48,304 bases of DNA from a virus (lineage: Duplodnaviria; Heunggongvirae; Uroviricota; Caudoviricetes). Shown here in pieces: positions 45,001 through 48,000 of this stretch; the stretch's first letter is position 1; each line of letters begins with the position of its first letter. The DNA is taken from IMG/VR virus record IMGVR_UViG_2563366867_000009; one strand, written 5' to 3'. Position numbers: made by a program.

Positions 45001-48000
45001 TCATAACCGCGACTTGTTATAGCTTGCCTGTATGCGTTCATTTTGCGTTCTGCGTACTGGACAACATCTTTAATGACAAGCTTATGAACAACTGAAATAA
45101 GGTCATTTATATAACAAAAGTCAGGTGACTTATTTTTCACTGGCAACCAAATAACATCGTCCTTAATTTTTCTATTACTAACACTATCCCCCCATGAATA
45201 TTTATGTGAAATAGACCTATAAATACATGAAATAATGCCCAAATAAGCAAACTTTGTCCTTCCATCCTCATTGTTAACATAGAGTCGCAAATTATGACTG
45301 TCGTTTGAAAAAAAGTCTCGCTCCTGATAAGTTACAACGAATGTCTTACCACCAATAAAAATACAGTTCCCTTTTTCCAAGAGTGAGTCATCATAGGCGA
45401 TATAAGAACTAACAGAGTTATTATCACGGCTAGCACAAAGATAAGGAACATCCCCACTATTTTCTATGATGTCTCTAGACAATATGTTTCCTGTATTGCA
45501 CACTGAGAATAACTCAGTAACAGGAAAGCCTGAAAATTCAATATTTTTAAAATGTTCCAGGATAAGATAATCTTTTTCCGTTAGTTGGTAATCACTCAGC
45601 CCAGCAGCTATCAGGTATGCTTCCAGCTCTTCTATATGGGCCGCTTCCAGCTCTTCTATATGGGCCGCTTCCAGCTCTTCTATATAATTATCCATAAAAA
45701 ACCAGTCAATTTCATTATTTTTCACTGGTAATGAGATGAAATATTCTCCATCTCTGAGTTTGGAACTCGATAACTGTTGACCATAATTAAAACGCCCCTT
45801 TAAAGCTTTATTAATCATACTGGCAACATACAGTCCGCGCTTTGCATTAAAGTCGGACTTACTTGATTTTAATGTAAGAACATGCACCTTCATTTCTACG
45901 CTGGCACAATAAGGATGATAAAAAGCATCTCCAAAAAAATTAACGCTTATAAAATTTTCATAATGCCTTGCATCATCCATAAACTCGGTATCAAACTCTC
46001 CGATGATACCGTTTTGATCGCTCTTTGCTGAAACACGTTTGATTTTGCCTGGTTTTAATCTTCCTGAGGAGATAAGCGAGCCTGTGCTCACATAGAACAA
46101 ATCGCCAATCCTGAACTCTCCCCACTCAACGCTTCTTAATTTATCGCTGAGCGGGGAATTTACTTTCCCGCAAAATTGTTTTCACCTTGTTTTTTCAGTA
46201 ATTGCGAGACCTCCCATGCAAGGTAATCACCTACCGTCTTTTTGAAATCCTCCAGCGTTGGCCTAGCATCTACTGGCCTGGTCTGATTCCAGTCCTCACC
46301 ACTATCAGGATCGATTGTTCCCTCAAAATATTCATCCTCCGTAAAGATATTAAGGCAACCTTTCCCGAAGTGAACCAGATCCACAACCTCCTGATAACGC
46401 TCTTTTGCACGATCAGCATCAACAAGATTGTTTCTTGCCTTTTTGCGATTAGAGCGAGCGTAGCCGTCATTGGAAAAGTCGATAAACTTAACAGCCTGTT
46501 TCGCGTTATGCGGAATTTTTACCTGAAAAACGTAAATGTACGTCTGAACGCTTGATTTACCAATAAACAGATCCGCAGGCATTTTGATGCTTGCCAGCAA
46601 GGTATTTTCCTTGAGTATTTTTTTGTTGTACTCCGTAGCCTTTCCTGTGCCAGCTGAACTCTGGATAATCACTGCAGCATAGCCTTTATCCATCATCGAC
46701 AGCGCCTTCTGCACGAAAATCATGCCGTTACCTTTAGCTGAATACGGAGGATTGAGAATAAATGCGTCCGCAGGGAATTTTTCTCCTGTTTTCCCAAATC
46801 CATACTTGCCGTCAAAATCGGCCAGCGAGTCTTTATTGAGGATATTCGAGCTACCATCCCCCATCAAAATCATATTCAGGATGGCCAGCATATAAATACT
46901 GGATAACACCTCAAGGCCAAGAAGCTGTTCAGCCTTGATTTGCGCTTCCTTAAGTTGTAGTTCGTTCGGTGAGTGAATATTTTCTCTGGCGTCAATGAGC
47001 ATTTCATTCATTGCAGCCACAAGCAATCCCGCAGAACCTGTAGCAAAATCCCACACATAGGAATCTTTGTTTACTCTGGCGAGTCGTGCCAGCAATGTGG
47101 CAACATAAGGTGGTGTCAGAACGACGTCATTGAGCTTGTCCTGCGTAAATCCAAGCCAGCGATACATCTCATTAAACAGTTTGCCCGTAAAATCGGTGGT
47201 CAGTCCAATTTTGTAATACTCCCCAAGATCATCAACAACTTTAACAAACACGCGCTTTAACTGGCTTTCACCGTTGACTGGTTTGTTAATGTTTTCAGTC
47301 CACAGCGTATTTTGCAACGAGCGCAAAATCATTTCTCTTTTTGTTTCAGGAACAGCTTTCAGCCTTAAAAAATTCCTTATTTTCCTGAAAATAATATCAC
47401 CATCACGCAAGTCCTCCTCCGTTGAAGAGGTCAGTTCTTTTTTATCCAGCGGTGCTAACTTTCCCGGAATCCCCAACGTTGCAATAACGGTAGCCACAAC
47501 AAGGTAAACACGATCGCTTTCACCAAGCCCCTTTTCATTCTGGTAAATATCGTTATTCAGACGGGAAAGTCGCGTGTCTATCTCTTCCTCTTTGCTGGCC
47601 TTGATTTTTTCCAGTTCTTCGGGAGGAAGATTAAGCAGCTTTATCTTGTTGAGAAATCCATCAACATTTTTGTCAGCAAGGAACGATAAGTCGGTGAATT
47701 CACCAACCTTCTGTCCGGCTCCTAAATTATTCTTTGATACGTACCACACGCCGATTTCATGATGCAGTTCGCCTGTATCATCATCGCGCCAGCCGGTCAT
47801 ACCAATAGCAATAATATCAGGGTAATTGGTGAACTGAAGAAGTGCGTTGGCATAATGGACTGCGCCATTCACCGCGTATCCATTAATATTTTTAAAATTC
47901 CATTCTTTTCTGGCATCTTTGTTCTCAATAATACCGTTGCTGCCAAGTCTGATAAGCCTGTCCTTGTAGCCTTTATACTCGATGAGAACGGGATACTGCT

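Follow-up and report, generated by a model that had tools for sequence, protein, structure and literature searches.

A length-polymorphic in-frame 24-bp repeat in the putative central coiled-coil helix of a type IIB/IIG-like specificity subunit carried by Escherichia coli prophages

The window analysed here, a stretch of 48,304 nucleotides from a Caudoviricetes virus (IMG/VR record IMGVR_UViG_2563366867_000009), carries on its minus strand a predicted two-gene restriction module, in which a fused restriction-methyltransferase (RM) gene (46160..48211) precedes the gene of a specificity (S) subunit (44982..46100). The S gene contains a perfect 24-bp tandem repeat (45619..45685, minus strand) made of two full units and a 19-nt partial unit, for which Tandem Repeats Finder gives a 24-bp period, 2.8 copies, 100% matches, 0 indels and a score of 134. 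On the minus strand, which is the coding strand, the array reads ATAGAAGAGCTGGAAGCGGCCCAT / ATAGAAGAGCTGGAAGCGGCCCAT / ATAGAAGAGCTGGAAGC-ATAC and encodes, in frame, the peptide IEELEAAH-IEELEAAH-IEELEAY. The tract has a perfect self-match of 43 nt at offset 24, which cannot be expected by chance in 48 kb, and the plus strand over the tract holds no open reading frame (ORF) of at least 60 aa. The original prediction, made from the sequence of the window alone, had placed a perfect tandem repeat at 45619-45686 and had described its product as EELEAAHI repeats. The central tandem repeat is confirmed, with its end moved by one position as base 45686 is the first mismatch, and the encoded peptide is the predicted one, IEELEAAH being the identical unit in another phase.

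The S gene encodes a protein of 372 aa with the organization TRD1-CR1-TRD2-CR2, i.e., two target-recognition domains (TRDs) and two conserved regions (CRs), and the ORF matches the Pfam family Methylase_S in two stretches (3.5e-19). An AlphaFold model built with 71 homologues reaches a mean predicted local distance difference test score (pLDDT) of 91.8 and consists of two α/β TRD folds with a 33-residue helix (residues 147-179) between them and a 36-residue C-terminal helix (residues 342-377) after them, where residue numbers refer to the 386-aa modelling query. The central helix CR1, WFFMDNYIEELEAAHIEELEAAHIEELEAYLIA (45606..45704, minus strand; pLDDT 84-93), holds the entire repeat, with the three units at residues 154-176, and the C-terminal helix CR2 (45012..45119, minus strand), its expected antiparallel partner, is free of the repeat. 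Foldseek matches the model with probability 1.00 to 1YDX, 1YF2, EcoKI (2Y7C), EcoR124I (7BST) and the S subunit of BsaXI (8w0p_C). Given this fold layout and the matches to solved S subunits, the protein has two TRDs separated by conserved helices, and the tract does lie between the two TRDs as first proposed, in frame and inside the central helix that separates them.

The partner of S is a fused enzyme. The database annotation of RM (46160..48121, TTG 48121, 653 aa) covers most of the gene, and coding extends upstream of this start. At its N-terminus, RM carries a PD-(D/E)xK nuclease, with E39 at 48095-48097, the PD dipeptide at 48032-48037 and the ExK motif at 47972-47980, and this is followed by an N6-adenine methyltransferase with DFATGSAG at 47027-47050 and NPPY at 46742-46753 (all minus strand), the order of the two motifs being that of the gamma class. 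The nuclease residues E39, P59-D60 and E78-x-K80 are invariant in 46 homologues, are surrounded by a predicted helix/strand/strand/helix/strand succession, and match the E-D-ExK tetrad demonstrated in BsaXI by mutagenesis (PMC11997821). Consistent with a single polypeptide that combines both activities, as judged in silico, RM matches the PADLOC model REase_MTase_IIG at 1.9e-232 over residues 10-675, carries a Pfam N6_Mtase domain, and is aligned by Foldseek over its full length (678-756 columns) only with the fused enzymes BsaXI RM, DrdV and BpuSI; alignments with HsdM structures span no more than about 420-570 columns. At the sequence level, querying the PDB with RM, S or a profile gave no match, BsaXI included, and fold comparison alone worked.

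These features bear directly on the class of the module, because the original prediction had treated the protein as a type I S subunit. A classical type I system with its HsdR translocase-nuclease encoded elsewhere would account for the Pfam Methylase_S and N6_Mtase matches and for the labels “HsdM family” and “restriction endonuclease subunit S” in RefSeq. However, RM scores only 36.3 bits against the NCBIfam hsdM equivalog TIGR00497, for which the cut-off is 242.75, and this low score, together with the extra N-terminal nuclease domain, sets it apart from HsdM-type modification subunits. The S protein matches the PADLOC type II specificity models Specificity_II PDLC03591 (1e-23) and PDLC03593 (1.3e-18) and none of the PADLOC type I specificity models at ≤0.001, as a separate, BcgI B-like type II specificity subunit does. 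Moreover, neither the window nor 28 E. coli loci have an HsdR gene next to the RM–S pair, and none adjoins it on the chromosome of Neisseria, in which an orthologue 72% identical to that of the window forms a two-gene cassette between the PseudoU_synth_2 pseudouridine synthase and histidyl-tRNA synthetase genes. The type I assignment is thus not borne out: the REase_MTase_IIG match, the N-terminal PD-ExK nuclease and the restriction of full-length fold alignments to fused enzymes already contradict it, and a classical type I system is very improbable here. We file the module, on sequence and model comparisons, as a putative BcgI-like type IIB/IIG pair of a fused nuclease-methyltransferase and an S subunit, predicted to cut on both sides of its target; one phage record carries the remark “BcgI alpha chain-like”.

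The 5′ end of the S gene in the window is unusual. The TTG start at 46100 is preceded by AGGA at 8 nt, and the start is uncertain, since alternative callers choose ATT 46109 or GTG 46091. Upstream, a remnant of the ancestral 5′ end (46143..46217, minus strand) begins with an ATG at 46217 inside the RM gene and is interrupted by an in-frame TGA at 46184-46182. The TGA is followed by the conserved S N-terminal peptide GKVNSPLSDKLRSVEWGEF, for which no canonical start codon is present ahead of TTG 46100; S homologues begin MGSFKNY.../...GKIDSPLNEKL..VEWGEF. It is conceivable that S is translated by re-initiation at TTG 46100, by read-through of the TGA, or as a −1 frameshift fusion. A programmed −1 frameshift that fuses RM to S was considered as the principal explanation, since G GGA AAG TAA closes the RM gene, S is read in the −1 frame, and G GGA AAG is the slippery heptamer of lambda G-T. 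It was rejected in that role, because the GGA AAG codons are also present in Neisseria, where S owns an ATG, because B- and C-type junctions are without the motif, and because TTG 46100 has the AGGA noted above. Independently, RefSeq breaks the 3-copy S gene of one locus (L001) into a “pseudogene” and a fragment though its frame is intact, and several 2-copy genes of the same length are treated likewise; this splitting of intact S genes is an annotation artefact.

The number of repeat units differs between alleles that are otherwise nearly identical. With copies counted as IEELEA units and alleles grouped by TRD type combination, alleles of the window type (A-X) are of two copies in phage PhiR12_3 and in each of 18 complete E. 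coli genomes, three in the window and in SCU-104 (proteins P0003/P0005, on 69 and 107 contigs), and four in two independent assemblies (L037 and L038), in which the array is perfect at the DNA level. Three other combinations vary as well, with 1, 2 and 3 copies in B-X, 3 and 4 in C-X, and 2 and 3 in B-Y, and one Salmonella allele is found with 2, 3 and 4. The S alleles differ by 8-residue steps while the remainder is nearly identical, and 2, 3 or 4 units accompany identical recognition domains in at least three lineages. Far from being invariant, therefore, the copy number of this in-frame central-helix repeat takes values of 2, 3 and 4 among near-identical alleles on several TRD backgrounds.

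The units themselves carry a record of this variation. In the diverged C-X lineage (L022), they differ by 6 nt from those of the main lineage and by 1 nt from each other, a pattern that argues for independent duplication or homogenisation at that locus. Distant homologues contain an imperfect two-unit version with the consensus FIAELEAERIAELEAYL, and the prophage lineage has therefore made an ancestral helix repeat of two units perfect and now changes its copy number. The sole 1-copy S allele examined at the DNA level (L039/L040; GCA_001902675.1, GCA_001902685.1) adjoins an RM gene with a nonsense codon (…EEEIDT*LSRL…), so that intact systems have 2-4 copies. An exact-pattern scan of a metagenome collection gave four 2-copy loci only, and the same scan of species-representative genomes gave no locus.

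A second repeat array lies at the other end of the module. At the edge of the window, 13.3 copies of a heptanucleotide, (GACCAGC)n, are visible on the minus strand (48212..48304) before the window end cuts the array; in full loci, (GACCAGC)16-120 directly follows ATGATTTTATG-CTG-CCA, which offers two ATGs in two frames (5630-6093 in L001, with the array in the same place in L002-L028 and L032). Whichever frame is read, the array yields (DQRPATS)n. The 30 codons that separate it from the annotated TTG are at least 90% conserved in 46 homologues, are covered by the PADLOC model, show a ratio of nonsynonymous to synonymous substitution rates (dN/dS) of 0.10-0.17, and align with the Neisseria orthologue from its residue 5. 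Since these codons are coding, the true RM start would lie upstream of the array, where copy number sets the frame, and the annotated start TTG 48121 is probably wrong. Relatives without an expanded array begin MLPNQRPTNKSRK or MLPDQRPATNKSRK, the seed of the array, and this likewise points to coding upstream of the annotated start. Among 28 genomes, RM is in frame with ATG2 in 7, with ATG1 in 9 and with neither in 12, and heptamer counts differ in close relatives (83 in G6/7, 99 in G8 and 91 in G1/2; 76 in UCPROB-001 and 83 in UCPROB-002) and in related assemblies (11 in L039, 17 in L040), although individual frames are provisional because long arrays can be miscounted in assemblies. Indeed, contigs L037 and L038 break exactly at the array, as does the window. 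In strains G8, DETEC-S792 and 09-00049, a 2-copy S allele accompanies an RM in frame with ATG2. A non-triplet tract within the reading frame that varies in length and shifts frame between strains is thus present, and on/weak/off phase variation of RM is likely on this sequence pattern. Our literature search for the array sequence returned no papers. On the strand opposite to the array, RefSeq places a “YXWGXW repeat-containing protein” of variable length (L001 5612-6103 and equivalents), an annotation that almost certainly arises only because no frame of the repeat is closed.

A third array is found in sister S alleles. In those with TRD2 of type Y, (GCGGACTC)n adjoins the 24-bp repeat on its 3′ side (L023-L028, at about 5150-5300, within the S gene), and the window allele is without the octamer tract. 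This octamer array encodes GLADSRTR in all frames. With n = 6, S is in frame, and with n = 4, 8 or 16, the gene is divided into a TRD1-CR1 half and an orphan TRD2, as predicted for an NgoAV-type switch between full and half S (PMC7383803). Among the three arrays, the 24-bp unit in 2-4 copies is the slow polymorphism, and the 7-bp and 8-bp tracts would be the fast switches of the module.

Substitution patterns indicate that the system has been under purifying selection. Compared with the 85%-identical L022, RM of the window has a dN/dS of 0.05 at a synonymous divergence (dS) of 1.5, and the TRD2-CR2 part of S (44982-45620) has a dN/dS of 0.23 at a dS of 0.096. The contrast in dS between TRD2-CR2 and the adjacent RM (0.096 versus 1.5) shows that TRD2 was recently exchanged between diverged modules, which is the classic TRD shuffling of S subunits. 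It may be asked whether the module is instead decaying in these prophages, in which case the repeats would vary by drift in a gene of no further importance. Several lesions are in line with decay: the TGA interrupts the ancestral S start, RM shares its frame with neither ATG in 12 of 28 genomes, one locus has a frameshift in S (L019), another has IS1 in S (L028), and L039/L040 carry the nonsense codon in RM. Against it, RM keeps a dN/dS of 0.05 at a dS of 1.5, and even the 22 codons that precede its annotated start stay at 0.10-0.17. Of 20 A-X alleles, 19 have an intact S ORF, and every copy-number change preserves both the frame and the perfection of the units. The distribution of RM frames over the 7-bp array is also that of a phase-variable gene, with both ATGs conserved in 27 of 28 loci. 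Decay of the module is therefore an improbable account of the repeat variation.

We favour, by analogy and by a modest margin of belief, the view that this in-frame repeat, which differs in length between alleles and lies in CR1, the central coiled-coil helix of a type IIB/IIG S subunit, retunes the spacer of the bipartite target. In the proposed mechanism, 24-bp units would be gained or lost by slipped-strand mispairing or unequal recombination between the perfect units, and each unit would add 8 residues that form two 4-residue pseudo-units, IEEL-EAAH. As the CR1 helix would be tied covalently to TRD1 at one end and to TRD2 at the other, a longer or shorter helix would shift and rotate TRD2 relative to TRD1, which would change the number of unspecified base pairs between the half-sites that (RM)2S would methylate and cut around. 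The precedent is the pair EcoR124I/II, in which a 12-bp TAEL repeat in CR1, present in 2 versus 3 copies, converts GAAN6RTCG to GAAN7RTCG, and engineered hybrids behave as predicted (PMC3874165). Because IEELEAAH has the 4-residue periodicity of TAEL, where 4 aa correspond to 1 bp, a spacer change of about +2 bp per unit would be expected. Repeat variation and TRD exchange would then offer prophages a cheap route to new restriction specificities.

The competing explanation is that the length polymorphism is tolerated without respecification, i.e., the spacer is unchanged or activity is merely raised, lowered or abolished, with TRD spacing set mainly by RM-subunit contacts and CR2. When 8-32 aa were deleted from CR1 in a BsaXI half-subunit made of TRD1-CR1, activity fell and cleavage was impaired, but the AC N5 GT spacer stayed the same, and the authors are sceptical that the spacer depends on helix length alone (PMC9159934). 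This is the only type IIB experiment on helix length that we found, and its result is contrary to a spacer change. By arithmetic, CR1 comprises 25, 33 or 41 residues for 2, 3 or 4 copies, while CR2 stays at 36 without a compensating repeat; as CR1 alone changes, certain lengths may give a weakly active enzyme instead of a new specificity. The position of the 1-copy allele next to a nonsense-bearing RM is likewise consistent with non-functional extreme lengths. Three further points, together with the BsaXI result and the fixed CR2, weigh against a spacer switch: the ancestral start of the window's S allele is lost to the TGA behind ATG 46217, RM is out of frame with both ATGs in SCU-104, the one complete genome that has the 3-copy allele of the window, and the number of independent slippage events is uncertain, because a small set of ancestral CR1 lengths could have been passed around by TRD recombination. 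On the other side, the BsaXI deletions removed a free C-terminal part of CR1 in a homodimer rather than altering an internal segment of a full-length S (PMC9159934), whereas the helix of a full-length S is anchored to a TRD at both ends. The EcoR124I/II precedent shows that a change in one helix does alter the spacer, and 2-, 3- and 4-copy alleles each recur with intact ORFs in several lineages. Weighing these points, we regard tolerance without respecification as unlikely, and a spacer switch driven by CR1 length as the somewhat better account. A methylome preprint on O111 (10.1101/173336) reports no bipartite motif and does not mention the module.

The comparison with EcoR124I/II, a type IC system, shows both how far the parallel extends and where it ends. 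In both systems, an in-frame repeat with 4-residue periodicity (IEEL-EAAH here, TAEL-TAEL there) occupies the first connecting helix (CR1/D1) between the TRDs, natural alleles differ in copy number only, and one of two paired helices changes. However, the unit here is 24 bp and 8 aa rather than 12 bp and 4 aa, its sequence is unrelated to TAEL, copies number 2-4 (1 in a broken system) rather than 2-3, and the module is a prophage-borne, putatively two-subunit type IIB/IIG system without HsdR. The N6-to-N7 change of EcoR124I/II has been demonstrated (PMC3874165), whereas the spacer change proposed here is a prediction.

With the type IIB enzymes BcgI, BsaXI and NgoAVIII, the module shares an RM of about 680 aa that fuses an N-terminal PD-(D/E)xK nuclease to a gamma-class N6-adenine methyltransferase, an S encoded separately with about 370 aa in the TRD1-CR1-TRD2-CR2 layout, and a two-gene cassette with no translocase, and PADLOC and fold matches agree on this. 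It has no sequence-level match to any solved chain, BsaXI included, and its RM, at 683 aa from the array end, belongs to a short class compared with the 914-916 aa of BsaXI RM in the fold-search table. For characterised enzymes of the BcgI/BsaXI/NgoAVIII type, we found no description of repeat tracts in S or RM.

The two non-triplet tracts have their closest counterparts in phase-variable type I systems with simple sequence repeats (SSRs). As in the poly-G tract of NgoAV hsdS, the 8-bp tract of the sister alleles lies between the TRDs and gives a full-length or half S, and as with the pentanucleotide of Haemophilus influenzae hsdM, a non-triplet tract at the 5′ end of a methyltransferase-bearing gene shifts the frame. 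The module differs from these SSR systems in its E. coli/Salmonella host, its lambdoid prophage carrier and its type IIB enzyme, and in having 7- and 8-bp units with up to 120 copies and two starts in two frames. A survey of type I SSRs excluded repeat units that are multiples of 3, and its main text is without Escherichia (PMC7383803). Our literature search found no description of the module or of its repeat-switch behaviour. The underlying idea, namely the EcoR124 mechanism, is already known; what is new is that it concerns a type IIB enzyme carried by a prophage, with a unit of 8 aa, a series of natural alleles of 2, 3 and 4 units, and two non-triplet tracts in the same module.

As a whole, the window is a lambdoid prophage of the short-tailed, 933W-like kind, encoding a phrog_616 protein of 2788 aa, a portal, a terminase and a collagen-like tail fibre. 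The RM–S module lies between the Q antiterminator/hok and the nanS-p esterase with the lysis genes, and in some relatives it stands directly upstream of stx1c, stx2 or stx2b; it occupies the moron slot of the late operon, the usual site of stx genes. At several loci (L009-L014, L018, L019, L023, L025 and L027), a 114-bp relic annotated as “site-specific DNA-methyltransferase, missing N-terminus” is found about 300 bp downstream of S and precedes tRNA-Ile/Arg/Arg and stx; the window is without this tRNA cluster and stx. The relic may derive from the Stx-phage methyltransferase that is the subject of PMC10810198. Identity of the module itself with that Stx-phage “rRNA methyltransferase”, M.EcoPA8orf6770P/PNB-2 (PMC10810198), was considered and rejected, as the latter belongs to a different gene pair with a small winged helix-turn-helix partner upstream.

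Other parts of the window carry features of their own. The 2788-aa ORF (7780-16146, minus strand) matches phrog_616, a family of unknown function, from end to end and, at its C-terminus, weakly resembles DarB-like antirestriction proteins, so an antirestriction-like giant protein and a restriction system occur in one phage. Further tandem repeats are located in the small terminase gene (38741-38793, 12 bp × 4.4), in a tail-associated ORF (26060-26163, 48 bp × 2.2) and in the tail-fibre gene (28100-29305, with collagen-like 9/18/27-bp periodicities).

Collectively, the three arrays raise the possibility, which we hold tentatively and at somewhat less than even odds, that the module is a prophage-borne type IIB “contingency” module with three independent repeat switches, the 7-bp and 24-bp arrays and, in sister alleles, the 8-bp array. 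The roles assigned to them are equally tentative: the 7-bp array would set RM on, weakly on or off, the 24-bp repeat would step the spacer, and the 8-bp array would give full or half S. The module looks like a multi-switch hypervariable restriction system, which is unusual for E. coli. To our knowledge, stochastic restriction variation has so far been linked to Neisseria, Haemophilus, Helicobacter and Mycoplasma rather than to E. coli.

Restriction specificity determines the entry of phages and plasmids, and genome-wide methylation can alter gene expression. If the 24-bp unit does step the spacer, the hosts of near-identical Stx-type prophages would differ in restriction barrier and methylome, owing to changes that escape short-read pipelines and annotation, as the RefSeq splitting of S and the assemblies broken at the 7-bp array illustrate. 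The EcoR124 rule would then apply beyond type I, in type IIB enzymes too, where the sole experiment argues otherwise, and the natural series of 2-, 3- and 4-unit alleles makes the spacer question directly testable. If all three switches operate, Stx-type E. coli prophages would vary both the activity and the specificity of restriction stochastically. The presence of the 7-bp and 8-bp tracts points to true contingency loci on prophages of E. coli.

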